A stretch of 64,000 bases of DNA from Chiloscyllium plagiosum (taxonomy: Eukaryota), in assembly GCF_004010195.1 (NCBI RefSeq), contig NC_057752.1, forward strand, positions 9,002,766 to 9,066,765, in the 5' to 3' direction. The stretch's first letter is position 1. Each line of letters opens with the position of its first letter. This document shows, piece by piece, positions 7,276-61,138 of the stretch. The notes under the pieces were generated by a model. That model was not told the DNA's origin. It was given only the letters and a program-made list of their open reading frames with translations, and did no database searches. Position numbers and translations under genes: made by a program.

Positions 7276-7553
7276 GGGTGGCGTGGCAGCTCAATGGTTA
7301 GCACTGCTTTCTCACGGCACCATGGACCTGGGTTCAATTCCACCCTTGGGTTACTGTCTGTGTGGAGTTTGCACATTCTCCCTGTATCTGCATGAGTTTC
7401 CTCTGGGTGCTCTGGTTACCTCCCACAGTCCAAAGAGTGCAGTGTAGGTGGATTGACCATGCTAAATGTAGGGTTACAGGGATTGGGTGGGGGAGTGTTG
7501 GTGTGGACTTGATGGGTCAAATGACCTGTGTCCACACTGTAGGGAGTCAATGA
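7276..7553 (+). mobile_element. HE1-type SINE
   Basis: tRNA head, V core and CR1-like tail. Confidence 0.85.
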
Positions 7554-13899: not shown

Positions 13900-14320
13900 G
13901 TACTTATGGTGGGAATCTTCTAGCGTACTGGTCTATACCTCTCGGGGCCCATCTCTCTTTCATTTGTCACAATCCCATGCCATGGGAAGTGACCTTTTGT
14001 ACAAATTGGTGCATGTTTCCCTCTGTTATAACCATTTACCCCTCCTTTGAACCCATCCTTTGTTTTTATATTTGTCTCCTTATCACTTCCTTTTGCCTTG
14101 TACAGTCATCACTTTTATCATTTAATTGTTCCTGCCTTCCTATCTCCTTTATACTTTCTGGACCCCTTTTCTCTTGATCTGTGCCTAATTGTATGTTCAT
14201 TTCTAATCCTCCAGTTCTGATGAAAAGATGGTGCCACGATATGTTAATTGTTTCTCCCTCCAGTAGATATTGCCAGACCTGTTGTGCATTTCCAGCATCT
14301 TCTGTTATCATTTTCTCCAT
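13900..14320 (+). mobile_element. Old Neptune-type PLE 3' terminal relic
   Basis: Pyrimidine-rich run, then ttctgatgaa...gccagacctgttgtgcatttccagcatc; related relics at 1-120, 4670-4850, 32190-32315, 52730-52955, 58195-58365. Confidence 0.55.
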
Positions 14321-14504
14321 TTTCTAAGTGAGTTATTTAGCCCATTATGATTGTATACAGTTTGCTCGAGGTCCATTGCGTTGAGCAATGAATGTGAAAG
14401 AACAAGTAAAAGCAAATCCTCAAGTGTTTATTTGTGTCGTATCCTATCCTACTTGGAGCTGCTCCTGCCAGGAGATCTGCTGTCGTGGTATATACCTATT
14501 TCAT

Positions 14505-15390
14505 CTGTTCAAGGTTTTTGTAAAGATTTGTAGCTCGGGTGCCGGTTGTAGTTGTTGTGGGTGTGTTCACCGAGCTGGGAAGTTGGTTTGCAGACATTTC
14601 ATCCTCTTTCTAGGTAACATCCTCAGTGCTGTTGAGCCTCCTGTACTGTGTAGGTTGGAATTTATTTGATTTCATTCCTACTGCTTTCAGTTGCTCATTG
14701 CAGTGGTCAGTATATTGGGTTGAGGTCAATGTGTTTATTGATGGAGTCCGTGGATGTGTGCCAAGTTTCTAAGAATTCTCTGGCTATCCTCTGTTTGGCT
14801 TGTCCTATTATTGCTGTGTTGTCCCAGTCAAATTTGTGGTCCTTGTCATCTATGAGTATAGATACTAAAGATAGCTGATCATGGTGTTTATGATGTTCAT
14901 GAATGCGGATCACTAGTTGTCTGCCTGTTTGTCCTATGTAGTATTTTGTGCAGTCTCTGCATGGAATCTTGTACACTATGTTTGTCCCACATATGATGGG
15001 TTTTGGGTCTTTTGTTCTGGTGAGTTGGCTGAGTGTGACTGTTAGTATACGTGCTGTCATAAATCCGAATGGTTGGAGGATTCTGGCTGTCAGTTCCGAG
15101 TTTTTTTTATATATAAGGGAGCACGGTTGGTGTGTTGGGTTGTGGCATGTCCTTGTCACGTTGTTTGTCTGCCAAGCATCTGCAGATGAAGTTGAGGGGA
15201 TATCGGCTCTTGGCGAAGCCCTTGTAACGGTATTCTTCCTCTCTTCACCAGTCAGGAGTGCTGCAGTGTGTTGCAGCCCTTTTGACCGGGTCCTAATGCA
15301 GCTTCTCTCGTGTGTGTTTGGGTGGTTGCTGTTATAATTCAGGATCTGGTCCGTGTGTGGCTTTTCTGTACACTTTTGTACATTCCCCAT
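14505..15390 (-). mobile_element. Poseidon-type Penelope element 3' part (RT thumb + GIY-YIG endonuclease)
   Basis: THTDQILNYNSNHP, NIVYKIPCRDCTKYYIGQTGR, REFLETWH; hammerhead-like core at ~14590-14630. Confidence 0.9.
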
Positions 15391-15784
15391 TCTGTGTTCT
15401 TTCTACCATAATATCCAGCAATTTGTTGTGCCATCCTCACAGATCCATGGCAGCTCTTCTGCAACCACTCTGAAATGTCAGTCATCCAACTATGCCGAAG
15501 TCCACCTCTCTTTCTGCCCTCTGCATTACTGTTTAGAAGAGATCTCTATAGCTTTGCAGCTTTGATAAATGGTTAAAGTATTGGCACTTTAGTTTCTAGA
15601 TGTCATACTTTTTCTCTTGCCATGTCAAGCGCCTTGTCTTTTGTCTTATGATCTTTGTGCGGAATTTGAAGTATACAATTTGGCAGGTACTTTACAAAAG
15701 CTTCTATTTTCTTCCACAGATTGTTTCCCAGATTTCTAAGGTATACAGAATGTAGCATCTTATGAGCTTTCTTTTCCACCTCAG

Positions 15785-16640
15785 AGTTATAGAGTCATAG
15801 AGACGTACAGCACGGAAACAGACCCTTCGGTCCAAATTGTCCATGCTGACCAGATATCCCAACCCAATCTAGTCCCACCTGCCCGCACCGGGCCCATATC
15901 CCTCCAAACCCTTCCTATTCATATACCCATCCAAATGCCTTTTTAAATGTAGCAATTGTACCAGCCTCTACCACTTCCTCTGGCAGCTCATTCCATACAC
16001 ATACCACCCTCTGCATGAAAAGGTTGCCCCTTAGGTCTCTTTTATATCTTTCCCCTCTCACCCTAAACCTGTGCCCTCTAGTTCTGGACTCCTCCACCCC
16101 AGGGAAAAGACTTTGCCTATTTATCCTATCCATGCCCCTCATAATTTTGTAAACATCTATAAGGTCACCCCTTAGCCTTCGCTCCAGGGAAAACAGCCCC
16201 AGCATGTTCAGCCTCTCCTTACAGCTCAAATCCTCCAACCCTGGCAACATCCTTGTAAATCTTTTCTGAACCCTTTCAAGTTTCACAACATCCTTCTGAT
16301 AGGAAGGAGACCAGAATTGCACGGAATGTTCCAACAGTGGCCTAACCAATGTCCTGTACAGCCGCAACATGACCTCCCAACGCCTGTACTCAATACTCTT
16401 TCCAATAAAGGCAAGCATACCAAACGCCTTCTTCACTATCCTATCTACCTGCGACTCCACTTTCAAGGAGCGATGAACCTGCACTCCAAGGTCTCTTTGT
16501 TCAGCAACACTCCCTAGGACCTTACCATTAAGTGTATAAGTCCTGCTAAGATTTGACTTCCCAAATTGCAGCACCTCGCATTTATCTGAATTAAACTCCA
16601 TCTACCACTTCTCAGCCCGTTGGCCCATCTGATTAAGATC
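15785..16640 (-). mobile_element. CR1 LINE 3' fragment
   Basis: MEFNSDKCEVL...LYRTLVRPLLE...QFWSP...WNELP ORF; short-repeat tail. Confidence 0.95.
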
Positions 16641-17690
16641 CTTATACAGATGTACAGCACAGAAAAAGACTCTTTGGTCCAACTCGCCTATGCTGACCAG
16701 ATATCCTCAATTAATCTAGTCCCATTTGCCAGCATTTTGCCCATATCTCTCTCAACCCTTCCTGCTCATGTATCCAACAGATGACATTTAAATATTGTAA
16801 TTGTACAAGGCTCCTCCAATTTCTGTGGCAGCTAATTCCATACACACACCACCTTCTGTGGCAGCTAATGTCTCTTTTAAATCTTTCCCCTCTCACCTTA
16901 AACCTATGCCCTCTAGTTTTGGACTCCTCAACTCCGGGAAAAGACCTTGTCTATTTACCCTATCCATGTCCCTTATAATTTTATAAACCTCTGTAAGGTT
17001 ACCCTCAGCCTCTGATGCTCCAGGGAAAATAGCCCCACCCTATTCAGTCTCTCCCTTTAGCTTAATCCCTGCAATCCCAGCAACATCCTTATAAATCTTT
17101 TCTGTACTTTTTCAAGTTTAATAACATCTTTCCTATAGCAGGGAGACCAGAATTGAACGCAGTATTCCAAAAGTGTCCTAACCAATGTCCTGTACAGCTG
17201 CAACATGACATCCCAACTCCGATAGTCGAGAGTGTGGTGCTGGAAAAGCACAGCATGTCAGGCAGCATCCGAGGACCAGGAGAATCAACTTGTCGGGCAG
17301 ACACCCTTCATCAGGAAGTGCTTCTCCCACACTCTCGACTCTGATCTCCAGCATCTGCAGTACTCACTTTCTCCGAGTTGATCCCAACTCCAATACTTAA
17401 TGCACTAACCAATAAAGGCAAGTGTACCAAATATCACCTTCATTATCCTATCTACCTGTGACCCTACCTTCAGGGTACTAGGAACCTGCATAGCAAGGTC
17501 TCTTTGTTTGGCAACATTCCCCAGGACCCTACCATTAAGTGTATAAGTCCTGCCCCTGATTTGACATAGGAAATGCAACACTTTACATTTATCTAAATTA
17601 AATTCCTTCTGCCACTCCTCATCCCTTTGGCCCATTTGTTCATCTGATCAAGGTCCCATTGTACTCCGAGGTAACCTTCTTCGCTTATTA
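16641..17690 (-). mobile_element. CR1 LINE 3' fragment interrupted by a PLE terminal element
   Basis: Same RT C-terminal motifs, split at 17225-17380. Confidence 0.9.
17225..17380. mobile_element. Fold-back Neptune-type PLE terminal element
   Basis: Family sequence with partial inverted arms; TSD atcccaactcc(g/a)ata 17210-17224, 17381-17395. Confidence 0.8.
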
Positions 17691-19166: not shown

Positions 19167-21396
19167 GAACATAGAACAGTACAGCACAGAACAGGCCCTT
19201 CAGCCCACGATGTTGTGCCGACCATTGATCCTCATGTATGCACCCTCAAATTTCTGTGACCATATGCATGTGCAGCAGTCTCTTAAATGTCCCCAATGAC
19301 CTTGCTTCCACAACTGCTGCTGGCAACGCATTTCATGCTCTCTCAACTCTCTGTGTAAAGAACCCGCCTCTGACATCCCCTCTATACTTTCCTCCAACCA
19401 GCTTAAAACTACGATCCCTCGTGTTAGCCATTTCTGCCCTGGGAAATAGTCTCTGGCTATCGACTCTATCTATGCCTCTCATTATCTTGTATAACTCAAT
19501 TAGGTCCCCCCCTCCTCCTTTTCTCCACTGAAAAAAGTCTGAGCTCAGTCAATCTCCCTTCATAAGATAAGCCAGTCCAGGCAGCATCCTGGTAAACCTC
19601 CTCTGAACCCTCTCCAAAGCATCCACATCTTTCCTATAATAGGGCGACCAGAACTGGACGCAGTATTCCAAGTGCGGTCTAACCAAAGTTTTATAGAGCT
19701 GCAACAAGATCTCACGACTCTTAAACTCAATCCCCCTGTTAATGAAAGCCAAAACACCACATGCTTTCTTAACAACCCTGTCCACTTGGGTGGCCATTTT
19801 AAGGGATCTATGTACCTGCACACCAAGATCCCTCTGTTCCTCCACACTACCAAGAATCCTATCCTTAATCCTGTACCCAGCTTTCAAATTCGACCTTCCA
19901 AAATGCATCACCTCACATTTATCCAGGTTGAACTCCATCTGCCACCTCTCAGCCCACCTCTGCATCCTGCCAATGTCCCGCTGCAGCCTACAACAGCCCT
20001 CTATACTGTCAACAACACCTCCAACCTTTGTGTCATCTGCAAACTTGCTGACCCATCCTTCAATCCCCTCATCCAAACCATTAATAAAAATTACAAAAAT
20101 TAGAAGCCCAAGGACAGAGCCCGGTGGAACACCACTCACCACAGACTTCCAGGCAAAATATTTTCCTTCTACTACCACTCGCTGTCTTCTGTTGGCCAGC
20201 CAATTCTGTATCCAGACAGCTAAGTTCCCCTGTATCCCATTCCTCCTGACCTTCTGAATAAGCCTACCATGGGGAACCTTATNNNNNNNNNNNNNNNNNN
20301 NNNNNNNNNNNNNNNNNNNNNNNNNNNNNNNNNNNNNNNNNNNNNNNNNNNNNNNNNNNNNNNNNNNNNNNNNNNNNNNNNNNNNNNNNNNNNNNNNNNN
20401 NNNNNNNNNNNNNNNNNNNNNNNNNNNNNNNNNNNNATCTGGTCCGGGCCTGGCGACTTGTCATTCTTAATGTTTGACAAAATTTTCAGCACATCAGCTT
20501 CCTCTATCTCTATCCATTCCAGAATGCACACCTGCTCTTCAAAGGTTTCATTCACTACAAAGTTTGTTTCTTTCGTAAAGACAGAAGCAAAAAACTCATT
20601 TAGGGCTCCCCCTACCTCCTCAGACTCCACACACAAGTTCGCTATGCTATCCCTGATCGGCCCTACTCTTTCTTTGACCATTCTCTTATCCCTCACATAA
20701 GTGTAAAATGCCTTTGTGTTCTCCCTAATCCATTCTGCCAAGCCTTTCTTGTGCCCCCTCCTGGCTCTCCTCAGACCTTTTTTGAGCTCAATCCTCGCCT
20801 GCCTGTAATTCTCTAGATCTGAGCTTTACCCTAGCTACCTCCACCTTATGTAAGCTACCTTCTTCCTTTTGACGAGAAGCTCCACTGCTCTCGTCATCCA
20901 AGGTTCCTTTACCTTATCCCTTCTTGCCTGTCTCAGAGGGACATATTTATTCATCACTCGCAACAACTGTTCCTTAAACAGTGTCCACATGTCTATAATG
21001 CCTTTACCATGAAACAATTGCTCCCAGTCCATGCTTCCTAACTCATGTCTAATCGCATCATAGTTTCCTCTTCCCCAATTTAAATATCCTCCCATTTTGC
21101 CTAATCCTCTCCTCCTCCATAGCTATGTAGAATGTGAGGCAGTTGTGGTCACTATCACCAAAATGCTCTCCCACCACAAGATCTGATACCTGCCCCGGCT
21201 CGTTTCCGAGCACCAAACCTAGAATGGCCTCTCCCCTCATCGGCCTGTCAACGTACTGAGTTAGGAAACCCTCCTGAACACACCTTACAAAAACAGCTCC
21301 ATTCAAATCTTCTGCTCAAAGGAGGTTCCAATCAATATTGGGAAAGTTAAAGTCACCCATTACAACAACCCTACTACGTCCACATTTTTCCAAAAT
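19167..21396 (-). mobile_element. Relatively young CR1 LINE (EN/RT) nested in the Penelope element; contains an assembly gap
   Basis: Long clean ORF pieces (209 aa with KFADDTK); catagaa-type tail; possible TSD taatta 19161-66 / 21397-402. Confidence 0.95.
20283..20436. other. Assembly gap (154 N)
   Basis: Run of N. Confidence 1.
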
Positions 21397-21972
21397 TAAT
21401 TATCATGGTAGCCCAAAAATCTACCACCAAACTAAAACAAATATTAATGAATTTAAAGGATCCTGTACCCACAGCCAGCAGAACGAACCTAATATACAAA
21501 ATACCCTGCAACAACTGCAACAAACATTATTTTGGACCGACGGGCAGGAAACTAGCCACCAGAATACATGACCGATTCTCATTGGTATCCATACACATAG
21601 ATGAAGAGGGACACCAGTTCGACTGGGACAATGCATCCACCCTGGGACAGGCTAAACAAAGACACATGCAGGAATTCCTCAAGGCATGTTATTCAAACTG
21701 CAACTCCATTAACAAACATGTTAATTTGGACCCCATTTACCAACTTCTCAGAAACCAAACTGGAAATGATATCACCCACCACAACAAACCACGACATTTA
21801 AGTAGCAAGTGGTACAGAACATCAACGCTTCACCGGAGACTCACTGATGATACTACCTAGCATGGTGATGAAACACCTAAAAACAAACACACCAGCTCAG
21901 CGAGCAAACCTACTTGAGCTACAAATCTTCTCCAAAATCTCAAACACCTATCTAATATTTTATTGTTTGTAG

Positions 21973-22277: not shown

Positions 22278-23542
22278 AGGCTGTGAGCCGAGGGTGTGGA
22301 GAGATCAATGGGAGGGGGGTGTGGGGCTGGGGGGAAGGTAGCTGAGACTGCGATAGGTAGACGGACGTGGGGGTCAGAGAGGAGGCTGGAGTGGATAGGT
22401 GGGAAGGAAGATGGACAGGTAGGGCTGGTCGTGAGGGCGGTGCTGAGTTGGAAGATTGGAACTGGAATAAGGTGGGGGAGGGGGAATGAGGAAACTGGTG
22501 AAGTCCAAGTTGATGCAGTGGGGGTTGGATGGTCCCAAGGCATAAGATGAGGCATTCTTCCTCCAGGTGTCGGGTGGTTAGGGAGTGGTGATGGAGGAGG
22601 CCCAGGACCTGTATGTCCTTGGGGGAGTTGAAGTGTTCGGCCACGGTGTGGTGGGGTTGGTTGGTGCATGTGGTCTGGAGATGTTCTCTGAAGCACTGTC
22701 CGAGTAGGCGTCCTGTCTCCCCAACGTAGAGGAGGCCACATCAGGAGCAACGGATACAGTAAATGACGTGTGGAAGTGCAGGTAAAACCCTGATGGTTGT
22801 GGAAGGCTGTTTTGGGGGCTTGGATGGAGGTGTGGGTGCAGGTTTTGCAATTCCTGCAGTGGCGGGGGAAGGTGCTAGGAGGGGAGGGTGGGCTGTTAGG
22901 GCATGTGGACCTAACAAGGTAGTCATGGAGGGAATGGTCTTTACAGAAAGCGGATGGGGTGGGGAAGGAAATGTATCTCTGGTGGTGGGGTCTGTTTGTA
23001 GGTGGCAGAAATGGCGGAGAATGATGCCATGTATGTGGAGGTTGGTGGGCTGGAAGGTGAGGAACAAGGGGGTTCCATCCTTGTTTCAGTAGGAGGGGTG
23101 GGGTTCAAGGGTGGAGGTGCGGGACATGGATGAGATGCTTTGGAAGGAATCATCAACCACGTGGGAGGGGAAATTGCGGTCTTCTGCCTCCGGACCCTCC
23201 AACCCCATGTGGATTACATCAGTTTCCTCATTTCCCCTCACCCCACCTTATCCCAGTTCCAACCTTCCAATTCGACACCGCCCTCGCGGCCAGCGGTGTC
23301 ACGTATCCAACACCTACCTGTCCATCTTCCTTCCCACCTATCCACTCCACCCTCCTCTCCGACCTATCACCATTACCCCCACCTCCATCTCTCCACCCCC
23401 TCGGCTCTCAGCCTCATTCCTGATGAAGGGCTTTTGCCCGAAACGTGATTCTTCTGCTCCTCAGATGCTGCCTGACCGGTTGTGCTTTTCCAGCACCACA
23501 ATCTCGACTCTGATCTCCAGCATCAGCAGTCCACACTTTCAT
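22278..23542. mobile_element. Neptune-type Penelope element with internal inversion (GIY-YIG part on -, 3' terminus on +)
   Basis: VIYCIRCS..GLLYVGET motif on -; inversion junction ~23180; 15-bp TSD ctatactatggagta 22263-77 / 23543-57; terminus matches the short palindromic family. Confidence 0.9.
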
Positions 23543-24384: not shown

Positions 24385-26270
24385 GTTCAGTTGGGGCGCT
24401 TGAGAGTTACAAGCTAGCCAGGAAAGACCTAAAGAGAGAGCTAAGAAGAGCCAAAGGGAACATGAGAATTTGTTGGCAGATAGGATCAAAGAAAACCCTA
24501 AAGCTTTCTATAGGTATATCAGGAATAAAAGAATGACTAGACTAAGTTTAGTGCCAATCAAGGATAGTAGTGGAAAGTTGTGTGTGGAGTCCAAGGAGAT
24601 AGGAGAAGCGCTAAATGAATATTTTTCGTCTGTATTCACACTGGTAAAAGACAATGTTGTTGAAGAGAATACAGAGATATAAGCTACTAGACTAGACAGG
24701 ATTGAGGTTCACAAGGAGGAGGTGTTAGCAATTCTGGAGAGTGTGAAAATAGATAAGTTCCCTGGGCTGGATGGGATTTATTTTAGGATTCTTTGGGAAA
24801 CCAGGGAGGAGGTTGTATAGCCTTTGGTTTTGATCTTTATGTCGTCATTGGCTACAGGAATAATGCCAGAAGACTGGAGGATAGCAAATGTCCTCCCCTT
24901 GCTCAAGAAGGGGAGGAGAGACAATCCTGGTCATTATAAACCAGTGAGCCTTACTTCAGTTGTGGATAAAGTGTTGAAAAAGGTTATAAGAGATGAGATT
25001 TATAATCATCTAGAAAGGAATAAGTTGATTAGGGATAGTCAACACAATTTTGATAAGGGTAGATCGGGCCTCACAAACCTTATTGAGTTCTTTGAGAAGG
25101 TGACCAAATAGGTGGATGAGGGTAAAGCAGTTGATGTGATGTATATGGATTTCAATAAGGTATTTGATAAAGTTTTCCACGGTAGGCTATTGCACAAAAT
25201 ACATGGGAGGCATGGGATTGAGGGTGATTTAGCGGTTTGTATCAGAAATTGACTAGCTGAAAGAAGACAAGGTGATGGTTGATGGGAAATGTTCATCCTG
25301 GAATTCAGTTACTAGTGGTGTACCGCAAGGATCTGTTTTGGGGCCACTGTTGTTTGTCATTTTTATAAATGTCCTGGATAAGGGCATAGAAGGATGGGGT
25401 AGTAAATTTGCAGATGATTTGTGAGTTGTGGATAGTGCCAAAGGATGTTGCCGGCTTTAAAGGGGCATAGATAAGCTGCAGAGCTGGGCTGAGAGGTGGC
25501 AAAAGGAGTTTAATGTGAAAAAGTGTGAGGTATTTCACTTTGGGATGAATAAAGAGTGCTGGGCTAATGCTAAGATTCTTGACAGTGTAGATGAGCAGAG
25601 AGATCTCGATGTCCATGTACATAGATCCCTGAAAGTTCCCACCCAGGTTGATCAGGTTATTAAGAAGACATATTGGTGTGTTAAGTTTTTATTAGTAGAG
25701 GGATTGAGTTTCAAAGCCATGAGGTCATGCTGCATCTGTACAAAACTCTGGTGTGGCCGCACTTGGAGTATTGCATATAGTTCTGGTCACCGCATTATAA
25801 GAAAATATCGAAGCTTTGGAAAGGGTTCAGAGGCGATTTACTAGGATGTTGCCTGGTATGGAGGGAAGGTCTTATGAGGAAAGGCTGAGGGAATTGAGGC
25901 TGTTTTCATTCCAACGATGAAGGTTGAGAGGTGACTTAATTGAGACATATAACATAATCAGAGGGTTAGATAGGGTAGATAGTGAGCGCCTTTTTCCTAG
26001 GATGGTGATGTCTAGCATGAGAGCATAGCTTTAAATTGAGGGGTGATAGATATAGGGCAGATATCAGAGATAGTTTCTTTAATCAGAGTAGTAGGGGCAT
26101 GGAACACCCTGCCTGCAACAGTAGCAGACTCGCCAACTTAAAGGGCATTTAAATGGTCAATGACTAAACTTATGGATGAAAATGGAATAAGATAGGCTTC
26201 AGATTGGTTTCACAGGTCGGTGCAACATCACGGGCCGAAGGGCCTGTACTGTGCTGTAATATTCTATGTT
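24385..26270 (+). mobile_element. CR1 LINE, decayed ORF2 3' half
   Basis: [38 protein letters not shown] motifs with stops. Confidence 0.95.
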
Positions 26271-26579
26271 CATCTTATTCAGAAGAAAAGAATCCTCCAC
26301 CCTCCATTAAAATAAAGTTTTAATTATTTAATTCTTAACATATCTGCTAAATTAGATATATCAGCTTATTGGGGACTGTCGATGAGTTGCTGCTTTTTAA
26401 ATCATTTATTCTCCTGAAATTTTAATTGTTTTTTGATCTAATTGATGACTCTGCTGAGGCAAACAACCTAGCTTTTGACACTGAATACATTATTTACTTA
26501 ATTCCGATGTAGGAAGCTGATTTTATTTTGGCTGTCAATGCATTTACATTTTTTCATATTGTTCTGTATTTAATTTAAG

Positions 26580-29509: not shown

Positions 29510-30620
29510 ATTATAATCCCTACAATGCAAAAGGAGGCCATTTGGCCCACTCGGACCCAGTCCCCTATCCTATCCCCATCACCTTACGTTTACAATAGTT
29601 TATCCAAATATCCTACATATCCCACATATCCCTGAACACTATGCGCAATTTAGCACAGCCAATCCACCTAACCTGCACACCCGTTGCACTGTGGGATGAA
29701 ACTGGAATACCCAGAGGAAACCCAGCAGATAGGAGTTTAATTTAGATAAATGCGAGGTGCTGCATTTTGAGAAAGCAAATCTTAACAGGACTTATACACT
29801 TAATGGTAAGGTCCTAGGGAGTGTTGCTGAACAAAGAGACCTTGAAAGTGGAGTCGCAGGTAGATAGGATAGTGAAGAAGGCATTTGGTATGCTTTCTTT
29901 TATTGGTCAGAGTATTGAGTACAGGAGTTGGGAGGTCATGTTGCAGCTGTACAGGATATTGGTTAGGCCACTGTTTGAATATTGCGTGCAATTTTGGTCT
30001 CCTTCCTATCAGAAGGAGGTTGTGAAACTTGAAAGGGTTCAGAAAATGTTGACAAGGATGTTGCCAGGGTTGGAGGATTTGAGCTATAGGGAAAGGCTGA
30101 ATAGGGTAGGACCATTTTCCCAGGAGGCTGAGGGGTGACCTTAGAGAGATTTAGAAAATCATGAGGGGCATGGATAGGATGAATAGATAAAGCCTTTTCC
30201 CCGGGGTGGGGGAGTGCAGAACGAGAGGGCATATATTTAGGGTGATCGGGGAAAGATATAAAAGAGACGTAAGGGACAACCTTTTCACACAGAGGGTGGT
30301 ACGTGTATGGAATGAGCTGCCAGAGGAAGCGGTGGAGGTTGGTACAATGACAACATTTAAAAGGCATCTGGATGGGTATATGAATAGGAAGGGTTTGGAG
30401 AGATATGGGCCAAGTGCTGGCAGGTGGGACCAGATTGGGTTGGGATACCTGGTCGGCATGGATGGGTTGGACCGAAGGATCTGTTTCCGTGCTGTATATC
30501 TCTATGACTGTAAGAGGTGAATGTACAAACTCCACACAGACAATTGCCCAAGACTGGAATTGAACCTGGGTCTCTGGTGCTGTGAGGCAGCAGTGCTAAC
30601 CACTGAGTCATCACGCTGTC
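29510..30620 (-). mobile_element. HE1-type SINE split by a CR1 insertion
   Basis: Tail/core at 29510-29725, head at 30512-30620. Confidence 0.85.
29726..30509 (+). mobile_element. CR1 LINE 3' fragment (same subfamily as 15785-16640)
   Basis: LKVESQVDRIVKKAFGML...QFWSPSYQK...WNELPEE. Confidence 0.95.
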
Positions 30621-33999: not shown

Positions 34000-36180
34000 G
34001 TTAGCATGGTTTTGTGAAAGGGAAATCCTAACCAATTTATTGGAATTCTTTGAAGGAGTAACACACTATGGATAAAGGGGAGCATATTGATGTACTATAT
34101 TTGGGTTTCCAGAAGACATTTGGCAAGGAGCCAGATAAAAATTCATTCTATTAAGTAGAGGCTCATAGTATTAAGAAAGGGGGGGGGAAGCTGTGTGTAA
34201 TTGGCTGGCTGGCAAAAAGCATATATCGATCTCTCTCAGATTGGTAACGTGTCAAATGGGATCTCAAGTATTTGTGCTGCTGCTCAACCTTTTACAATTT
34301 ATACCAGTAACTTAGATGAGGGGGTCAAAGGCATCAGATGATGCAAAGATAGGTACAAAAGCATGTTGTGAAGATGACATAATCTCTATCCTCTGCATCC
34401 TTACTGAGTGAGCAAAATTCTGGTAGATGGAGTATAATATGAGGAAATGTGAAGTTGAGCGTCATTTCCTAGCTGAAAATGTTGCTGGAAAAGCGCAGCA
34501 GGTCAGGCAGCATCCAAGGAACAGGAGAATCGACGTTTCGGGCATAAGCCCTTCTTCAGAGTTCCTCTTAGCCACATTGTGTCTAAGCAAAACAGTCCCA
34601 ACTTCTTCAATCTGTCTTCAAGTGAAATTTTTCATCCCTGGAACCATTCTTAAATGGCTGCTGCATTCTCCTGTTCCTTGGATGCTGCCTGACCTGCTGC
34701 GCTTTTCCAGCAACACATTTTCAACTCTGATCTCCAGCATCTGCAGTCCTCACTTTCTCCTCGTCATTACCTAGCGCCAATCTCCTGCTTTTTCCTCATA
34801 CCCTTGCACCCTATTTCTATCCAAATAATTATCTAATACTTTGTTGAATGCCTCAACTGAACCTGCCTCCACTGCACTTCCTGATAGTACGTTGCATTCC
34901 ATACTTTAACTAGTCACTGTGAAAAAGCTTTTCCTTACCATGCATTTGCTGCTTTTGCAAATCACTTTAAATCTGTTCCCTCTGAATCTTAATCCTTGTA
35001 CAAGCAGGAACAGTTTCTCCCTATCTACTCAATCCAGACTCAAAATTTTGACAACCTCTATCAGAGTTCCTCTTAGCCACATTGTGTCTAAGCAAAACAG
35101 TCCCAACTTCTTCAATCTGTCTTCAAGTGAAATTTTTCAACCCTGGAACCATTCTTAAATGGTTGCTGCACTCTCTCCAATGCCGCCTTCAGATGTAGCA
35201 ACCATGACAGGACACAGTACTCCAGCTGAGGTTAACATCACCTCTTTGCTGATGTACTCATGTACTTGTATTAATAAAGCCAAGGATACTTTATGGTTTA
35301 TTAATTGCTCTCAACCTGTCCTGCCATCTTCAATATGTCCAGGTCTGTCTGGACCTGCAACCCCTTTAGAGGTGTACTCCCTATTCTAATTGTCTTTCAA
35401 TGTTCTTCCTACCAAACATCATTTGCAACCACTTTGCTGTTTTATTTAAAGTACAGTATTACTTAAACAGAGAATGACTATCGAATTCCAAGATACCAAG
35501 GGATCTAGGTGCTCGAGTGCATCAGTCACAAAAGATTGGTACACAGGTACAATACAATCAGGAAAGCTAATAAGATGCTAGCCTTTATTACAAGAGGAAT
35601 TCAACATAAAACTAATAGTCCTCCTCTTCAGTTACATAGTATTCAAGATATAGTCTCACCCGTGTCCTAAGTGAAGTTCTGGTCTCCTTAAGGAATTATG
35701 TAAATCTGTTTGATATGGTTTAGAGGAGATTTACTAAACTGGTACCTGAAATGAGTGGGTTGTCTGATGAGGAAACAGTGGACAGGCTGGGCTTATTTTC
35801 ACTTGAGTTCAGAAGAGCAGAAGGTGGAGTAGTTTATAATATACTGAACAGTTCTTGAGAAGGTGTCTGTGGAAAGAACATTTACTCTTTTGGGTGATTC
35901 CAAAACTATGGGACGTTGTTTTAAAATTAGGGATCACCCTTTTATTGATGAGGTGAGGGGAAATTTCCTCTGAGGGTTCTATGACTTTGGAATACTTTGC
36001 CTCTGGGAGGCAAGGTTATGAATATTCTTAAAGTGGAGACTGATTCCCTTGCCAGACAAGAATCTAAGGTTATCAGGGATAGATGGGAATGTGGAATTCA
36101 GAGCACGTCCAGACCAGTCATAACCTCATTGAATGGCAGAACAGGCTTGAAGAACCAAATGCCTTACCTCTGCTAATTTG
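34000..36180. mobile_element. Cluster of old CR1 fragments (+ 34000-34455, - 34780-35430, + 35440-36180)
   Basis: Degenerate RT and 3' tail motifs. Confidence 0.75.
34474..34761. mobile_element. Fold-back Neptune-type PLE terminal element with a captured 110-bp insert
   Basis: Family arms; TSD cgtcatt(t/a)cctagc 34460-73 / 34762-75; centre duplicates 35061-35170. Confidence 0.88.
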
Positions 36181-36249: not shown

Positions 36250-38455
36250 CACAAGGGACTGATGTCAGAGGAGCATGCAAAATAAAAAGGATAAGACTTT
36301 CCCCTTACCCACTCATTTCATACTTTTGTTGGTAGAAGCCCTTTTTGTGCTCCTCTTGCTCAATGTGGAAGCTCAGGGACATGGCTGACGTCCCTGACTC
36401 CTTCACGTATAGGAAGTGTGTCCAGCTGCAGCTCTTGTTAAACCGCATGACAGCTCTGGAGCTGCAGATGGACTCACTTTGGACAATCCGCGATGTTGAA
36501 GTGGTTGTGGATAGCACGTTTAATGAATCGGTCACACTGCAGATTAGGTTTGCTGAGGGAGAAAGGGAATGGGTGACTAAGAGGCAGAGAAAGAGCATAA
36601 AGGCAGTGCAGGTGTCCCCTGCGGTCATCTCCCTCCAAAACAGGTACCGTTTTGGACACTTGTTGGGGGAGATGGCTCACCAGGCAGTAGCCAGGTTCAT
36701 GACAGGGGCGTGCAAATGATTGAATAGGGGATTCAATTGTAAGGGGAGTAGATAGGTGGTTCTGTGGTCAAAAACGAGGATCCCGCATGGTATGTTGCCT
36801 CACAGGTGCACGGGTCAGGGATGTCTCAGATCGGCTGCAGAACATTCTGAAGGGGGAGGGTGAACAGCCAGTTGTCGTGGTGCACTTTGGCACCAATGAT
36901 ATAGGTGAAAAATGGGATAAGATCTGACAAGCAGAATTTAGGGAGTTAGGAGCCAAGTTAAAAAGTAGGACCTCAATGGTAGTAATCTCAGGATTGCTAC
37001 CAGTGCCATGTGCTAGTCAGTAGAAATGAAAGAATAGGCAGGATGAATGCATGGGTTGAAAGATGGTGCAGGAGGGAGGGGTTCAGATTTTTGGGACATT
37101 GGGACTGGTTCTGGGGGAGGTGTGGCTATTACAAATTGAAAGGTCTACACCTGGGCTGGACTGGAACCAATGTCCTTGGAGTGCTTTTGCTAATGCTGTT
37201 GGGGAAGGTTTAAACTAATGTGGCAAGGGGTCGCAAACCAAATGAGGAGGTTAGTGGACAGTCATAAGGTAGTAACTAAAGCCTGTAAGGAACTAGATGG
37301 CATGATGTCAGCCTGACTAAGGGAAAGAGTAGGCAGGGAGTAGGTAATGAATGCAAAGGGACAAGTGGTCTGAGGTGCATTTGTTTTAATGCAAGAAGTA
37401 TAGTAGGTAAGGCAGATAAACTTAGGGCTTGGATTAATACCTGGGAGTATGATGTTATTGTCATTACTGAGACTTGGTTGAGGCAAGGGTATGATTAGCA
37501 GCTAAATATCCCAGGATACACAGAGGAACCTCGATAATCCGAACGACACGGGCAGGGAGTATTTTGTTCAGATAATTGAATGCCGGATAACACAGTTTAC
37601 CCAAACATCGGGACCTTGCGATCTTGTCTGGATAATCTGAAATTCAGATAATTGAATGCCAGATAATAGAGGTGCCTCTCGATGCTTCAGGCAGGAGAGG
37701 GAGGTAAAAGGGGTTAGAGAAGATATCACAGCTGTGCTGAAGGAGGGAAGCATGGAGGACTCGAGCAGTGAGACAATATGGGCAGAGCTCAGAAATAGGA
37801 AGGTTGCAGTAACAACTTTGGGAATAGTGATCACAATTCCGTAAGTTTTAGAATACTTATGGACAAAGACGAGAGTAGTCCTAAAGGATGTGTGCTAAAT
37901 TGGTGGAAGGCCAACTATACCAAAATTCAGCAGGTGCTGGGGAATGTGGATTGGGAGCAGCTGTTTGAACATAAATCCACATTTGAAATGTGGGAGGCTT
38001 TTAAAAGCAGTTGATTAGAATGCAGGACAGACATGTCCCTGTGAAAATGAGGGATAGAAATGGTAAGATCAGGGAACCATGGATGACCAGTGAAATTGTG
38101 AGACTGGCTAAGAAGAAAAAGGAAGCATATGTAAAGGTCTAGGCAACTGAGAACAGACAAAGCTTTGGAACAATATCGGGAATGTAGGACCACTCTGAAA
38201 TGAGGAATTAAGAGGGCTTAAAGGGGTCATGGAATATCTTTGGGATTTTCTTTAACCGTTTCCTAAAGCCTTTTATTCATATATAAGGAGCAAGAGGGTA
38301 ACTAGAGAAAGGGTTGGCCCACTCAAGGACAAAGGAGGAAAGTTGTGGGGAGTCAAGAGAGAATGGGTGAGATTCTTAATGAGTACTTTGCATCGGTATT
38401 CACTGAGGAGAGGGAAGTGACGGATGTTAAAATTAGGGTAGACATTTGATTATTC
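36250..38455 (+). mobile_element. CR1 LINE 5' portion: ORF1 (Zn-finger/coiled coil + SGNH esterase) and APE endonuclease start, decayed
   Basis: CSSCSMW...CVQLQLL; GDSIVRG, VVVHFGTND, GLHL; FNARSIV, ITETWL. Confidence 0.9.
37521..37680. mobile_element. Tigger/pogo-like MITE inserted in the CR1 endonuclease
   Basis: Imperfect TIRs cagaggaacctcgataatccg / cagataatagaggtgcctctc; host PGY..CFR frame resumes after it. Confidence 0.7.
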
Positions 38456-38880
38456 AAAGTTTGTGAGAAGATTTGTAGCTCAGGTGTTCGTTGTTGTGGT
38501 TCTGTTCATCGAGCTGGGAATTCGTGTTGCAGACGTTTCGTCCCCAGTCGAGGTGACATCCTCAGTGCTTGGAAGCCTCCTGTGAAGCGCTTCTGTGATC
38601 TTTCCTCCAGCATTTATAGTGGTTTGAATCTGCCACTTCCGGTTGTCAGTTCCAGCTGTCCGCTGCAGTGGCCGGTATATTGGGTCCAGGTCGATGTGCT
38701 TATTGATTGAATCTGTGGATGAGTGCCATGCCTCTAGGAATTCCCTGGCTGTTCTCTGTTTGGCTTGTCCTATACTAGTAGTACAGGAGGCTCCCAAGCA
38801 CTGAGGATGTCACCTAGACAGGGGACGAAACATCTGCAACACAAATTCCCAGCTTGGCGAACAGAACCACAACAATGAAT
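38455..38880. mobile_element. Fold-back Poseidon-type Penelope terminal element
   Basis: - arm with IGQAKQRTAREFLEAWHS GIY-YIG tail; + arm 38783-38877; hammerhead cores in both arms. Confidence 0.88.
38529..38568 (-). ncRNA. Minimal type-I hammerhead ribozyme motif (PLE-borne)
   Basis: GCA-CTGAGGA-T-GTCACC(TCGACT)GGGGAC-GAAA-CGTC-TGC. Confidence 0.7.
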
Positions 38881-38884
38881 AAAA

Positions 38885-39595
38885 TAGTCATAGAGCATGG
38901 AAACAGACCCTTTGATCCAACCAATCCAGGCCCATGTTCCCAAACTAAACTAGTCCCACTGCCTGTGTTTGGCCTATCTCCCTCCAAACCAGTCCTATTC
39001 ATGTACTTATCTAAATGTCTTTTAAATGTTGTAACTGTACCTGCATCCACCATTCCTCTGGCAATTCATTCCACCCACAAACCACTGTATAAAAAGGTTG
39101 CCCCTCATGTCTTTTTAAATCTTTCTCCTCTCACCTTAAAATCATGCCCCTTAGTTTTGAACTCCCGCACCCTAGGGAAAAGACCCTGTTCTATTCATTC
39201 TGTCTATGCCCCTCATGATTTTATAAATCACTGTAAGGTCATCCTCAACCTCCTGCGTTCCAGTGAAAGAAGTCCCAGCTTATCCAGTCTCTCCTTTAAC
39301 TCAGACCCTATATTCTTGGCAACATCCTGGTAAATGTTTTCTGAACTCTCTTCAGCTCAATATCCTTCCGAAAACAGGGTGACCAGAACTGGACACAGTA
39401 CTCCAGATGATTCCTCACCAATATACTATACAACCTCAACATGATGTTCCAATTTGTATACTCAAAGATCTGAGCAATAAAGGCAGGCATGCTGAATGCC
39501 TTCTTAACCACCTGTCTACCTGTGACGCAAATTTCAAAGAATAATGTTTCTGAACCCCTAGGTCTGTCTGTTCTACAACAGTACCCAAGGCCCTA
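38885..39595 (-). mobile_element. CR1 LINE 3' fragment
   Basis: HLEYCVQFWSP, TFKRHLDKYM. Confidence 0.9.
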
Positions 39596-39949: not shown

Positions 39950-42900
39950 TTCAGCAGCAAGTGAACAGACATCAGAGTTTCTGTGAGTAAAGCTTAAAAT
40001 CCCAGTGGGTCAGAAGAAACACAAATGGTATGGTAATCTAGGCTGAAAAAGCAAGAAGGTAAAAAAATTACTTAAAGCTCAGATCATCACCATAGTGACT
40101 GGCCATCATAACAGCTACATAAATGGAAGTAGAGGGCCACAAAAGAAATACAAATCTGAGATGCAGACCTCGTGACATCACAAAGCCAGTGATTAAAGAA
40201 TTAATGTTGGACAGATTAAAAGCCTAAGCAGACCTGAACTCTAACAGTAACAATGTTTGAGAAAGTTTATTTCAGGCAGTGGAAATGGTGGAAGATCCTT
40301 CATAAGAACCACGAAGAAGGCTGGAATAGTTTACTTAAACTGCTAGGAGCAGGAATCATTCAGTAAAACTAACTTAAGTGGGAACTGTTCATCAAAGCTT
40401 CACACTGTGGGATTTAAAAGGATTCGAGAAGCTGAATGCTGAATAAATAATTACACTTAAGAAATAGGTCTTTATATTCCCTGGAAGACTCCACATGCCT
40501 TAACGAAGCAAGTTGAGAAGTAATGATTAGAAATGGACATCATTTCCAAAATCACAACAGCAACCAAGTAGTGCTTGTGCATGGTTATTGTACCCAAGCT
40601 GAAGGGTATTATTCATTTTTGTGTTTACTTTACACAGCTCAAAGTTGTGGTGAGAGAAATTCACCCAATGTCTACAGTTGGTAAACTATTCAGAAGTAGA
40701 AATTTCACGAAACTCGATGCAAATAGTGGGTTTTGCAGGATCCAATGGATAAGTAATCAAGATTGTTTCCTATATTCATAACCTCATTTGGGAGTTTTTG
40801 TTTTAAGATTCTCTACAGCGTGGAAACAGGCCCTTCGGCCCAACCAGTCCACACCGACCCTCCGAAGAGTAACCCACCCAGACCCATTTCCCTCTGACTA
40901 ATGCACCTAACACTATGGGCAATTTAGCATGGCCAATTCATCTGACCCACACATCTTTGGACTGTGGGAGGAACCGGAGCACCCGGAGGTAACCCACGCA
41001 GACACGGGGAGAATGTGCAAACTCCACACAGTCGCCCAAGGCTGGAATCGAACCTGTGACCCTGGTGCTGTGAGGCAGCAGTGCTAACCACTGAGCCACC
41101 ATGCCACCACTGTTTCCACTGGTTACCATTTGGGATAACCTCAACTCCACAGGTTTGATCAGAGATGACATACATTTCAAAGCCCTTACAAGCATATGGA
41201 CTCACCCTTAATGACAGGTGCAAATTCGCCAATAATCTATTCAGTTCTCAGGTCACATTATCACCAGTGCAGGTATGATAATTCATCCTCAGAAGACTAA
41301 AGCTGGAGTTACCAACTTCAAAGTCAGTCCAGGTTCTCTAGAGATTCTTCGAGATGGTGAACCAGTGAGCAAATGTTTTGCCTCACTTTGTAACTACTAC
41401 AAAACCCTTGAGTTAATTCCTCAAGCTGCAAGGGTAGCATTGGAACAGCATCAAGAAAGTGCTTTTGAAAGGATCATGGACATGCTGACATTCATGGATG
41501 TCTTAGTGCACATATTCCATCCTTTCCAACCATCATTGCAGCCAATGCTTCAGCCATGGGCTTAGAAGCCAATCTCTTCCAGGAGCAATGGAATGAATGT
41601 CACAGATTACATATCATGAGCAATATCAGACACGATACAGTTGTGATTAAGGAGGTGACTCTTGGCTATGTGCACTTGCAAGAAATTCTCAGACTACATC
41701 TTTGGTCTAAAAGTAGTTACAGAAGTGGATCACAAATCGTTAATTTCTTGACTGGATGAGAAGAATTATCAGCAAGGATGTCTCTAAGAATACAAAGATT
41801 TCAACTTCATGTTATGAGACTCCCTTTGAAACACTATACATGCATGGGAACTGCAGATCTTCTCTCCAGAGCAACATTTCACAGTCTTACCAGGCACGAC
41901 TTTGAATTTATTCACAAAATAAGTGATATACTCAGTCCACGGGGGCACAGCAGCTAGCACTCTATAATCGACTGAGCCAGTTCTGAAAGGAGCTGTTGCG
42001 GCACCAGTGTATCTCACCATGTCAATATTGTGTTGAAGGTTGGCAGACCAAAAACAGGTTGATCATAAAAACATATTTTGAGCACCAACAGCTTTTTACA
42101 CAATGTGTCATTTACAGTTGTATGACTGGTCATTCCAGCTTCTTTTCGGGAAGATGTTCTCAGGAAGTTGCACCAGGGACACTTGGGGAACCACCAAGTG
42201 CAGAGTCAGAGGTCAATCAGAGTTATGGTGGCCTGTATTTCAAAGTTTTGGAGGATCTCATTACCGATTACAAGACCTGTTCCATTCACAGACCAGACCA
42301 ATAAAGGTCTTAATACCCATCACATTCCCACCAGACTGTAGGAACATATAATACAGATATTTCTCCCAATGGTTAGAGATTAAGAAGTTGCATACAACTA
42401 TGGACACAATTATCTGGAGTGTTACACAAGATATTTGAAATGCACGGTACACCTGATGTGTTATTTTCAGACAGACAATTTGCAGCCAGTTCTGGATTTG
42501 AACCTATCATAAGCCTGGGTAAGATATCCACACCTGAATGGAGAAACCCAGCATGGGGTCAAGGTAGTCAAGTTGCTAACGAAGAATATTCGACCAAAGA
42601 ACTTGATTCTACATTTACACATGCAGGACTATCAAGACATATATAAAAGGATTGGTCCTATCTTGAGCAATAAGCGACATGAGGATCAGGGATCTGAAAG
42701 AACCAGGTATGATCATCAAAAAGCTGCAGACCAGCAGGGAGTGTATACTGTTTATCCTGCTGAATGGATCAAAAGTGGAGTTGCAGGAACCTTATCCAAT
42801 TTTGGGTTAATCAACTGGTGGCTTGGAACTAAACTAATGGGAGACTTGAGATCACGAGAGACCTACAGACCTCAGACTGTCAAAGTAAGGGAATCAATGA

Positions 42901-52397: not shown

Positions 52398-53064
52398 CTT
52401 AAGGAGAAGAGATTGATATTAATAAAGTGAGGATAGTTACACTGAGGTAATATTACCAGACCAATAATTGGGAGGTCAGCACTAATGCACCAGAGACACA
52501 GGTTCAAATCCAGCTATGGAAGTTGAGGGAATTTAAATTTGATTAATTAATTAAAATTCTAAAATAAAATGTTGGTCTTATTGAATTTTAACTGTCCTCT
52601 AACAGCCTCACAAGCCATTCAGTTGTGACCTGCTGAAGGGCAATAAACATTGGCCTTGCCAGTAATGCTAACAGGTCATTAATGAATACATTAAAAAGTC
52701 TAAAGGGCAATATAGCGATATGTTAGAAACAAAATCAGAAATTGCTGGAGAAGCTCAGCAGGTTTGGTAGCATCTATGGAGAGAAAGCAGAGTTAACATT
52801 TCAGGTCGAGTGACTCTTCAGCCAATTCTGAAAAACACAGTCACTGGACCTGAAACATTAACTCTGATTTATTTTCAGATGCTGCCAGATGGGCTGAGCT
52901 TCTCCAGCAATTTCTGATTTTGTTTTGGATTTCCAGCATCCACAGTTCTGTTTTTTGTATAGTGACTTGCTATAACATTGGTATACCATCACCCTACAAG
53001 GCAACCTGTCTCAGTGTGTAGGACCAACTCCATAGTCTGCCACAACAAACTGTTATTCATTGAG

Positions 53065-57469: not shown

Positions 57470-58867
57470 CTGTTGAGAAATATTTAGAATAATTTATGGT
57501 CAGGTATCTGTGGGACAAAGAACAAGACCAATAGTATATGTTCTGGTGCAATGTTTCCATCAGATTTCACTGCCAAATGCGTTCATACTACAAGCTATGT
57601 TGTCCTCAGATGTGAAAGCTCATCACAATAACTGCATTATGCAACTTTCTAGAGGAAAACTTAGACAATTTTGGAATAAGCCTCATCTCTGATAAAAACA
57701 GAAAAGAAACGGGTAGCGTCTGAGTCATCTCCAATAAAAGCATCATCATCAGTCTGCAGCTTACAGCCCAGGGGTCCAACAATTAATGTGCCGGTAAGAG
57801 AGGAGATTGATCAATGTCACCTCTAATCCCAAGGATATGCTCAGTTATAATACATGGTGCATGATAGACTCAAGGGCAAGTTACAAACATTAACAGTGCA
57901 TTTAGTTTCCAAGGGAGTCTGCAAGAAAAGATCCCTGGAAAATACTGGTTTTAATACAACCTGCCACAGTATTCTACAGTCTACAAGCAAACATCAGTAT
58001 TACAATCCATTCTTTCCATCGTACTTAATTTTATCAAAAACTATTTGCTGTTTACCATTTGGAATTAATTGATTTTTTTTTGCACCTTAAAACTGCTTTC
58101 TCCCAATGGAATGGAATCTATAAATCAAACGAAAGCTACTTTTGCTTTTAAAAAAAAAAATAGATAAAACAATTGCAGAGGAATAAAACAAAGAATTGTG
58201 ATGCTGGAAATCTGAAATACAAAAACAGAAATTGCTGGAGAAACTCTGGCAGCATCTGTGGAGAGAAAACAAATAATTTGGGGTGACTGGACTCGAAACA
58301 CTAATTCTGCTTTCCCTCCACACTTACTACTAGAACTGCTGAGTTTCTCCACTAATTTTTGTTTTGTGTGTTAATAGCCGAGAGGATCTGTCTTCGAGTC
58401 AGGGCGCTAATGGAAAATTTAGAATGTGCAGTCCAAGACCACCTCTCCAGACACATGTTTTGTGACTTATCAAAGGAGTGAGGGTTGAATTTATTACATT
58501 AAGTGGCACATAATAATTGATGCTAGAATTGATGTTAGCCTCAAAACGATCTCCTACCAACCCTAGCACACAGAGGCACTGTGGATCCCAGACTGTTAAC
58601 ACACATGCTCCATTTCACCATCCCATCTCCTTCCCCAGTTCAAAACTGATCCTGTTATCCTATTTCCACTGCCCCCCCCATTGGCATTTAGAGTTGGACA
58701 TAAAAGATCTCTTATTTTGAAGAAGAAAGAGAAGGGGATTTCCCCTGAGGCAATGGAGGAAAATGGATAAAGCTCGTGTCAAACACATGATTTGGTGATA
58801 TAGCATGTGGGAACCAAGATTTGGTAATCTGGAATGAGGATGAGGTTAAGATTTTAGACTCTTTAAA

Positions 58868-59146
58868 TTAGATTACTTACAGTGTGGAAACATGTCCTTC
58901 GGCCCAACAAGTCCACACCGACCCTCCAAAGAGCAACCCACCCATTCCCCTACATTTACCCCTTCATCTAACACTACGGGCAACTTAGCATGGCCAATTC
59001 ACCTAACCTGCACATCTTTGGACTGTGGGAGGAAACCGGAGCACCCGGAAGAAACCCACGCAGACACGGGGAGAATGTGCAAACTCCACACAAACAGTTG
59101 CCGGAGGCAGGAATTGAACCCGGGTTTCTGGCACTGTGCCACCGTG
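58868..59146 (-). mobile_element. HE1-type SINE
   Basis: V core, CR1-like tail. Confidence 0.9.
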
Positions 59147-60059
59147 CTGCTCTTGGTGGAGAATACCCTATCAGACAAATTCTCAGCTATGCTTTCTTGT
59201 AGAAGGACTTCAAATTGTAATAATCATTTTAAAGTGAGACCCAAAGTGTTGAAATCGGAAAGAACATCAGAAAGTGAGATTGATGTATTACAATACGACA
59301 ATACACTAATGAGCTCAGCTCCTCCATTTATTACACAAAATGGTCTGAGAGATCATCACTATGTTCTATCTGCTGTAAGTGTAACATTATGTTCTGTACA
59401 CATAACACTACCATCAAAAGAACAATCAAGTCTACAAACAATTATGAAAAGGTGAGGCAAAATACGCAGTAAACTTGCCAAGTCCTCCCTGAAAAATATC
59501 CAAACATTTCCTGTTTGATGCTGGACTCTGTTTCAACATGCAGCCTCATTACATAAATGCATCAAAACAGTACTCAGTGTCCTAAAAGGAATTCAAATTT
59601 TGCTGGTGAAGTCAGACACGTGAACACCTGCATGAACTCCAGCATCATGCAATTACACCTCGCTCACTTTGAGATTGAAAGCAAGATCACTCATTTCCCT
59701 CACAGCGAAACTGTGTTTAGGTCAAGCAGCCCAAGAGAAAAAGGCCAAAATCCCATGGCAGATCTGGGAGTCAGATGTGTTGGAGGAAGTATTTTTGAGA
59801 GCTTGTAGTAATTCACCCAGAGATGAATCTCAGTGAAGTTACCTCCTGTAAAAGACCTGCAGATTGAAGCACTGAGGACACTAAACTGTAACAAGTAATT
59901 TTGTTGAGACACTTCAATCATGAGAATGACATAGAATTGCAACCTTCCAATGAAGCAAGTAGCCTTAACATTGTTTATCCGCCCTGTCCCCATATCAGTC
60001 CCCTTATCCACTTGGCACCATTCACAATTAGTTGAAGTAGAAACAATATCCAGTCTAAG

Positions 60060-60268
60060 AGGAGAAAGTGAGGACTGCAGATGCTGGAGATCAGAGCTGA
60101 AAATGTGTTGCTGGAAAAGCGCAGCAGGTCAGGCAGCATCCAAGGAGCAGGAGAATCGACGTTTCGAGCAAAATTCCTGAAGAAGGGCTCATGCCCGAAA
60201 CGTCGATTCTCCTGCTCCTTGGATGCTGCCTGACCTGCTGCGCTTTTCCAGCAACACATTTTCAGCTC
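60060..60268. mobile_element. Fold-back Neptune-type PLE terminal element
   Basis: Arms ~60093-60170 and ~60192-60269; opposite polarity to 1609-1806. Confidence 0.88.
60172..60209 (+). ncRNA. Minimal type-I hammerhead ribozyme motif (PLE-borne)
   Basis: CTGAAGA-A-GGGC(TCAT)GCCC-GAAA-CGTC at 60177-60204. Confidence 0.7.
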
Positions 60269-61138
60269 TACTTCAACTAACCACAGCCCTCCAAAATGCA
60301 ATCTATAGCTTCACAATTAATTTACTCCCACAAAGATACTAATAATTTAAATTCATCCTGTGTCAGCTAAGTCACTTGTGAGATATCGAAAAATCAACCT
60401 TCCAGTACAATGTCCCAGTGGCATTCTGCATTAGAAGGCTAGTTCTTTAGCCCAGTGTTGACTTGGGCTGTGACCCTTAATTAAGTTGACCTTGTTCCAT
60501 AAAAGTAGACTGGGATGATAGAACTTAAGGGCATTTGCATTCAACTTGAAAACAATGTCTTTAAAATTTATTCTTGGGATGTGGACTTCATCGTCAAGAC
60601 CAGCGTTTATCACCCATCCTCAAGACTGTGGTGACAAGCCATCTTCCAGATTTGTACATTGAAATTCCTTGCCGAGCCATTTTAAAGGAGCAGTTAAGAG
60701 TCAACCCAAGTGGTTCTGAAGTCACGTAAAGGCCAGACCAGGTTTGGACAAAATATTTTCTTCCCCAAAAAGGAGTTTCATGAATCATTTAGGCTATTAC
60801 AACAATCTGGTTTGTTTCATGTTCACCAATACCTTTTAAACCCAAATACTGTGGTGGGATTTGAACACCTGTCTCTACAGCTTGAGTCCAGGCTTCTGGA
60901 TTACTATCCAATAATATAACCTTTGAACATTAAATAATTAAACACAAAGGCTTCTTGCAGCCTGGAGTCACTCAGCTTCTGGACACTGCTTGCTGACTGT
61001 CTGGTTAAAAGAACCCTCTGGGTTCTGACAGCACAGTTACTCCAGTTGTACTTGAGAGCTTCATTCAAGTCACAAAGGGTAAGTTATTCAGAAGGAATCA
61101 CAACCAAACCACCAGCCTCAAACAGGTAAACCTTTTAC

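Follow-up and report, generated by a model that had tools for sequence, protein, structure and literature searches.

A short stretch of the shark Chiloscyllium plagiosum genome carries a hammerhead ribozyme core inside a fold-back (60060-60269, numbered within the window, by which we mean the whole 64,000-nucleotide stretch of DNA analysed here), and the question is what kind of element left it there. The original prediction was a recently mobile, retrozyme-like family derived from Penelope-like elements (PLEs). We find that the locus is a new shark case of the known class of PLE hammerheads and not a new retrozyme family. It is very probably a dead, heavily 5'-truncated insertion of Neptune type, with a hairpin that was probably made during integration.

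Layout of the insertion and its relatives

The 210 bases at 60060-60269 lie within an inferred host intron and consist of two pieces of a PLE end placed head to head, only one of which carries a 33-nt tail. On an element axis that counts C3 as 1 and has the predicted cut between 28 and 29, the tailed arm (60093-60170, minus strand) runs from 16 to 93, or to 126 with the tail (60060-60092, minus strand, axis 94-126), which is present on this arm only and corresponds to the 30-40 bp tail described in the available text of PMC8557442, PMC3846280 and PMC11167929. A 2-nt filler (60171-60172) separates this arm from the tail-less inverted one (60173-60269, plus strand, axis -3 to 93), which holds the entire hammerhead; the tailed arm begins inside hammerhead loop II, and the minus strand thus has no catalytic box. 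The arms differ at one of 78 positions (60093-60170 against 60192-60269), with a folding z of -22, and the right end, formerly placed at 60268, is corrected here to 60269.

At this end, 60268-60280 (plus strand) repeats 13 nt of the left flank (60028-60040) in inverted orientation. An inverted flank copy of at least 13 nt was reached at 11 of 20,000 random sites, and judging from the sequence the 13 nt are likely to be filler templated from the target. Their last 4 nt match 60055-60058, a weak candidate for a 4-bp target duplication; no long target-site duplication (TSD) was found at the 60060 insertion.

Three sister insertions of the same family are short as well. The copy at 1606-1808 (plus strand, 16-bp TSD) has a tail-less arm at axis 12-93 and a tailed arm at 4-126 that meet at a 3-nt microhomology, and it lacks the catalytic CUGA box. 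The copy at 34471-34762 (plus strand, 14-bp TSD with one mismatch) has a tail-less arm at axis 1-91 and a tailed arm at 30-126, and holds an intact core (34532-34559, minus strand) with no mismatch to the core at 60177, as predicted. Its centre (34556-34670) is a 115-bp copy, 97% identical to the nearby 35061-35175, joined by microhomologies at both sides; the tailed arm, at 34665, begins at axis 30, 1 nt from the predicted cut. An older copy inside a LINE fragment (17224-17374, plus strand, 11-bp TSD) combines a short tailed arm with a tail-less arm from axis -2 to about 91; it has a decayed core at 17314 on the minus strand (GACA-AG where GAAA-CG is expected), and a 6-nt inverted target copy adjoins its tail (at about 17375). 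The set of copies originally proposed as ribozyme-bearing fold-backs (1609, 17225, 34474 and 60060) therefore stands in part: the fold-back at 60060 is real, but the copies at 1606 and 17224 are without an intact core and the latter is scarcely a fold-back. An intact core is kept in only two of the five cited copies, at 60177 and 34559 (minus strand).

All four short copies carry the 33-nt tail at one end together with an inverted truncated copy. Their outer ends are constant, the tail-less arms ending at axis 91-93 and the tailed arms at 125-126, and their inner ends differ in every case. From these fixed ends and variable centres we infer, with some force, that the hairpin was built at integration, and it was likely rebuilt at each insertion. 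In three of the four, the tail-less arm has sequence missing from the tailed arm, so the first is not a simple copy of the second. Fillers derived from the flank are also present at three of the four (13 nt at 60268, 6 nt at about 17375 and, at 34556, 115 bp whose source lies some 300 bp distant), and TSDs of 11-16 bp accompany four of the five family insertions.

The fifth insertion is a longer, decayed Neptune-type PLE (22278-23542, both arms, 15-bp TSD). It had been named as a relative, and this relationship holds, with 84.5% identity over 97 nt to the 60060 family. The same core had also been claimed for it, but the core at 23420 is missing C17, the base at the cut site. This core lies with a tail on the plus-strand arm (23180-23542), which extends 240 nt upstream of the core; a broken coding sequence for the linker and the GIY-YIG end lies on the inverted arm (minus strand). 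The inverted arm ends at the hammerhead front, at a short microhomology to the target, and not at the tail boundary. Two of 13 candidate proteins passed as matches (P0001 and P0002, both labelled Chiloscyllium punctatum; RT/GIY-YIG, E about 1e-19), and P0001 aligned to the element by tblastn with an E-value of 2e-59 across residues 210-457. P0001 shows RVT_1 followed by GIY-YIG, both weak and below the Pfam cut-off, and a Pfam search of the window piece at 22278 alone gave no hit. The translated element has a C-terminal GIY-YIG domain with two cysteines between the motifs, and a cysteine-rich, zinc-finger-like linker between RT and endonuclease that aligned to P0001 at 68%. A linker of this kind defines Neptune in the available text of PMC8557442 (Nematis has the same feature), and its presence points to a Neptune-type element by that definition. 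A pattern search for loci related to P0001 returned 164 hits, none confirmed. We found no full-length parent of the exact 60060 subfamily, the nearest element being the one at 22278.

The hammerhead core and its setting

The core at 60177-60204 (plus strand) was confirmed letter for letter, as CTGAAGA-A-GGGC(TCAT)GCCC-GAAA-CG-T-C. It has the layout of the minimal type-I hammerhead in PMC4209133, with catalytic boxes at 60177-83 and 60197-200 (GAAA), an extra A at 60184, helix II at 60185-96, an ACGT palindrome at 60200-03 and C17 at 60204, after which cleavage is predicted. All 13 core positions (the CUGANGA and GAAA boxes, U16.1 and H17) are present at 60177 and at 34559. As in the PLE hammerheads of that paper, there is an unpaired base between 9 and 10.1, a G10.1-C11.1 pair and a palindromic 15.2-16.2. 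The assignment to the PLE type was therefore correct; the extra base and the palindrome are indeed there, but they are published hallmarks of PLE hammerheads and not oddities. Unlike the schistosome families, in which helix II has 7-8 bp, helix II here has 4 bp, and helix I is weak, with three of the first four pairs forming and a predicted pairing probability of about 0.12 even in isolation. Cofolding of two cores gave a minimum of -24.1 kcal/mol, which was not the double hammerhead; with helices II and III only, the latter reached -18.9 kcal/mol.

A family pattern allowing up to three mismatches matched four times in the window and not once in 100 shuffles; a scan of metagenome contigs and viral contigs gave 0 matches. 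An Rfam search over the window returned no hammerhead hit at E<=1, these minimal cores going undetected; its microRNA hits were far below the cut-offs and reflect nothing more than the long stem.

Core positions were compared in five of nine cores (B38801, B14626, C52821 and C14217 were left out, and B38801 was taken from a separate reading). The core of a second PLE family (at 38565) matches at 13 of 13 core positions, whereas the 50 nt that follow it score no better than shuffles (0.40 vs 0.41); its helix II differs in sequence and retains pairing. The original prediction had proposed weighing core against flank, and across PLE families the core is the better conserved. Among the 20 variable positions listed of 43 in the sequencing runs, nine fall within the core or on the base just behind the cut, namely N7, three positions in loops and five CpG transitions; downstream of the cut, 10 of 11 are non-CpG. 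Together, the matches across families and the variant pattern indicate that source elements kept the catalytic bases and that inserted copies decay at CpGs. To judge from these sequence comparisons, the core is under selection in active lineages of PLE families.

The prediction for 60060 itself is an inactive core, enclosed in a 78-bp stem. The predicted pairing probability of helix II is 0.001 within the whole hairpin vs 0.99 for the arm taken alone, and imposing the ribozyme fold on the whole hairpin would raise its energy from -168.2 to -141.9 kcal/mol, a cost of 26 kcal/mol. In the RNA run X21 (2781 reads, both strands), we found no pile-up of starts or ends at the cut site or elsewhere, a weak test of cleavage given a fragmented polyA single-cell library of which about 2% was sampled. 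The reads running upstream past 60173 leave 478 loose ends with a median of 55 nt, and almost no reads fall on the unique flank.

For abundance and age, 60170-60900 was compared with four sequencing runs: X21, a run X22 that contributed no reads, and two DNA contig runs. In the last two, 78,297 and 77,896 contigs matched, nearly all on a 100-bp piece of the element, which shows that this piece is highly abundant, although the contig counts are not a copy number. The joints among the 15 listed of 37 comprise 10 to the opposite strand, all at different position pairs, one skip and four going back, and two of these four, 60269 to 60177 and 60270 to 60173, span the whole unit head to tail. Elsewhere in the genome there are thus head-to-tail units, about 97-130 bp long, that could satisfy the published retrozyme definition. 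Joints at 60205, the equivalent of the arm start at 34665, were present in both contig runs (one and four contigs). Together with that arm start, they hint that some templates were cleaved, and are too few to count.

A contig from a second species covers 60242-60900 with 20 substitutions and six gaps; in it the orthologous flank is continuous with 28 bases of the element, below our 31-base rule for a bridge. The contig of run X5 ends at 60299 and gives no information on the junction. The second-species alignment suggests that the insertion is common to both species and predates a split of about 3%. It would then be not very recent, which weakens the view of it as recently mobile.

Origin of the hairpin

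The mechanism that we favour begins with an element protein that would nick both target strands and prime two cDNAs, one from the tail end and one from the tail start. Both cDNAs would stop early, near the hammerhead, and would be joined through short microhomologies or through fillers templated by target DNA close by. On this view the hammerhead was carried along from the terminal repeat of the parent, in which it would cut only with the help of the element's protein or of a partner copy. We regard the two-sided priming step as an even call. The geometry of the arms and the fillers copied from the flank fit it, and we prefer it since it links the two starts observed in vitro for a lizard PLE protein (PMC11167929) to the extra sequence of the tail-less arm in three of four copies. 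The same inverted-plus-tail layout in two further PLE families in the window (38444-38879 in one; 52727-52956 and 58185-58367 in the other) supports the general reading of a truncated insertion with a hairpin made at integration; a search for TSDs at 38487, 52727 and 58185 gave nothing convincing. Against it, both arms carry locus-specific variants in all three loci (two of these variants make up 21% and 11% of the depth in contig run X5), and such sharing would require both arms to come from one molecule, to be copied by fold-back or to be converted later.

This sharing is accounted for more simply if a single strand folded back and primed its own copying to give the inverted arm, along the lines of the self-priming model of PMC3846280, and the centre was later trimmed by deletion. 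The arms within a locus are nearly identical (1/78 and 0/83 differences), and there are microhomologies at the centres. The tail-less arm, however, reaches further 5' in three of four copies, which would take an extra asymmetric deletion each time, and the fixed stop at axis 91-93 is not explained by the model itself; we consider such an origin possible but doubtful. Rather unlikely, in our judgement, are templates in the form of short non-coding terminal-repeat RNAs that start just upstream of the hammerhead and are mobilised in trans in a SINE-like manner, with the hairpin again made at integration. The arm starts do cluster: three of the four core-bearing short arms begin within 3 nt of the catalytic box (axis -3, +1 and -2 in family A, to which 60060 belongs), and three of four second-family arms begin at -17 to -20. 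The starts in family A are not random truncation and hint at a short template RNA, and the roughly 78,000 contigs per DNA run on the 100-bp piece (again not a copy number) and the few head-to-tail joints among those listed agree with one. Yet the arm at 22278 continues 240 nt upstream of the core, many RNA reads extend upstream of 60173, and reverse transcription stalling at a structured core would yield the same clustering.

A ready-made hairpin copied as a unit, MITE-like or as a ribozyme-processed retrozyme, would account for similar sizes, fixed outer ends and the closeness of the three most similar copies (1-2 differences per 59-64 nt). It is nevertheless very unlikely and largely refuted by the diversity of the junctions: every centre is different, so there is no single hairpin master, the 1606 copy is no older than the rest although it has lost the catalytic box, the stem is predicted to enclose the core, and the window holds no tandem units. 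The retrozyme-like family originally proposed is given up on the same grounds. Least probable, to the point of being barely credible, is co-option of the ribozyme by the host to regulate the pre-mRNA of a cysteine/serine-rich nuclear protein (CSRNP). The element does lie in an inferred CSRNP intron (57470-61138, minus strand, between the exon at 61398-61139 and the one from 57469), with an intact core and an apparent presence in two species. The exons (61398-61139, 57469-57119 and 52418-51417, minus strand) were placed by Pfam PF16019 for the downstream ones and by motif, GT/AG and frame for the upstream one. But the intact core is antisense to this gene, the strand represented in the pre-mRNA lacks a CUGA box and forms the long stem instead, and X21 depth on the unique flank is near nil.

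Returning to priming of both strands, we offer a more specific version as a tentative proposal. A protein dimer would prime both nicked strands from the two starts at the edges of the tail, using as templates two terminal repeats carried by a single source RNA. The ACGU palindrome might hold these repeats together, which would make the hammerhead more clasp than cutter; the cDNAs would then be stitched together with neighbourhood DNA, and the stumps would record PLE integration. If this were true, thousands of junctions would allow the origin of PLE inverted ends to be tested by counting. The locus itself is ordinary, and its value lies in an abundant, intron-filling PLE family with intact cores and clean junctions. 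Such a family could reveal how the inverted-plus-tail structure arises and whether in vivo the ribozyme ever cuts the template, both of which are called unresolved in the available text of PMC8557442 and PMC11167929.

Known elements and other repeats in the window

Minimal hammerheads in the terminal repeats of metazoan PLEs, including fish Neptune and Poseidon, were described by Cervera and de la Pena in 2014 (PMC4209133) as mostly solo and tied to truncated PLEs, also as close opposite-strand pairs, and of low activity even as dimers; the dimer model is repeated in PMC6765202. Sharks are not named in the available account of PLE hammerheads in PMC4209133. Insertions of endonuclease-bearing PLEs consist of an inverted 5'-truncated copy and a 30-40 bp tail (PMC8557442, PMC3846280), for which PMC3846280 proposes self-priming. 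To judge from the available portions of these two papers, ours resemble them in the head-to-head arms, the tail on one arm, variable or absent TSDs, microhomology junctions and captured host DNA, and differ in a unit of 150-290 bp with no coding part and in target-flank fillers at three of four short copies.

The protein of PAc, a Poseidon element of the lizard Anolis, cuts and extends both strands in vitro, from two starts bounding the tail (PMC11167929). In the available text of that paper, the PLE protein assists its hammerhead, cleavage is not needed for insertion and no RNA-seq ends fall at the cut. A tail bounded by two RT starts, a hammerhead near the element end and the lack of RNA-seq ends at the cut are common to both systems, whereas PAc is a Poseidon and our element probably a Neptune, and we found no inverted insertions described for PAc in that text.

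Non-LTR retrozymes consist of at least two head-to-tail units, each with a full hammerhead (PMC7229834; bioRxiv 10.64898/2026.07.22.740005), and the latter, in its available text, reports retrozymes in one cartilaginous fish. Like the animal non-LTR retrozymes, the 60060 locus is non-coding, carries a type-I hammerhead and derives from a PLE end; unlike them, it has one core and an inverted layout. No tandem array of complete hammerhead units is present in the window, and head-to-tail joints elsewhere in the genome are rare. We rejected an LTR retrozyme (known from plants, with a type III hammerhead in direct LTRs) in view of the type I topology and inverted arms. A PLE expansion in whale shark introns is described in bioRxiv 10.1101/443036. 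Our literature searches, in which subscription journals were poorly covered, found no account of shark Neptune elements and none of twin priming, templated insertions or both-strand priming with inversion in PLEs, with PMC11167929 as the only related work for the last two.

Several other repeats were detected in the window. The second PLE family (1212-1304, 14498-15402, 21351-21860 and 38444-38879) has a hammerhead with a longer helix II, and three of its four arms begin 17-20 nt ahead of the core. Its GIY-YIG end may resemble Poseidon/Penelope. Hammerheads have decayed in a third and older family of PLE ends (33-119, 14202-14313, 52727-52956 and 58185-58367), of which two copies are tailed fold-backs; the downstream part of this family resembles the 60060 family at about 70%. 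LINE fragments are many (12047-13474, 15787-17656, 19167-20825, 25167-26271, 29725-30512 and 38882-39594), with an RVT_1 hit at 19552-20460 and runs of N near 20220-20700. Finally, a separate interspersed repeat of 190-270 bp with 79-88% identity (4459-4651, 7277-7541, 40806-41108, 58870-59138 and 30516-30616) is possibly a SINE.
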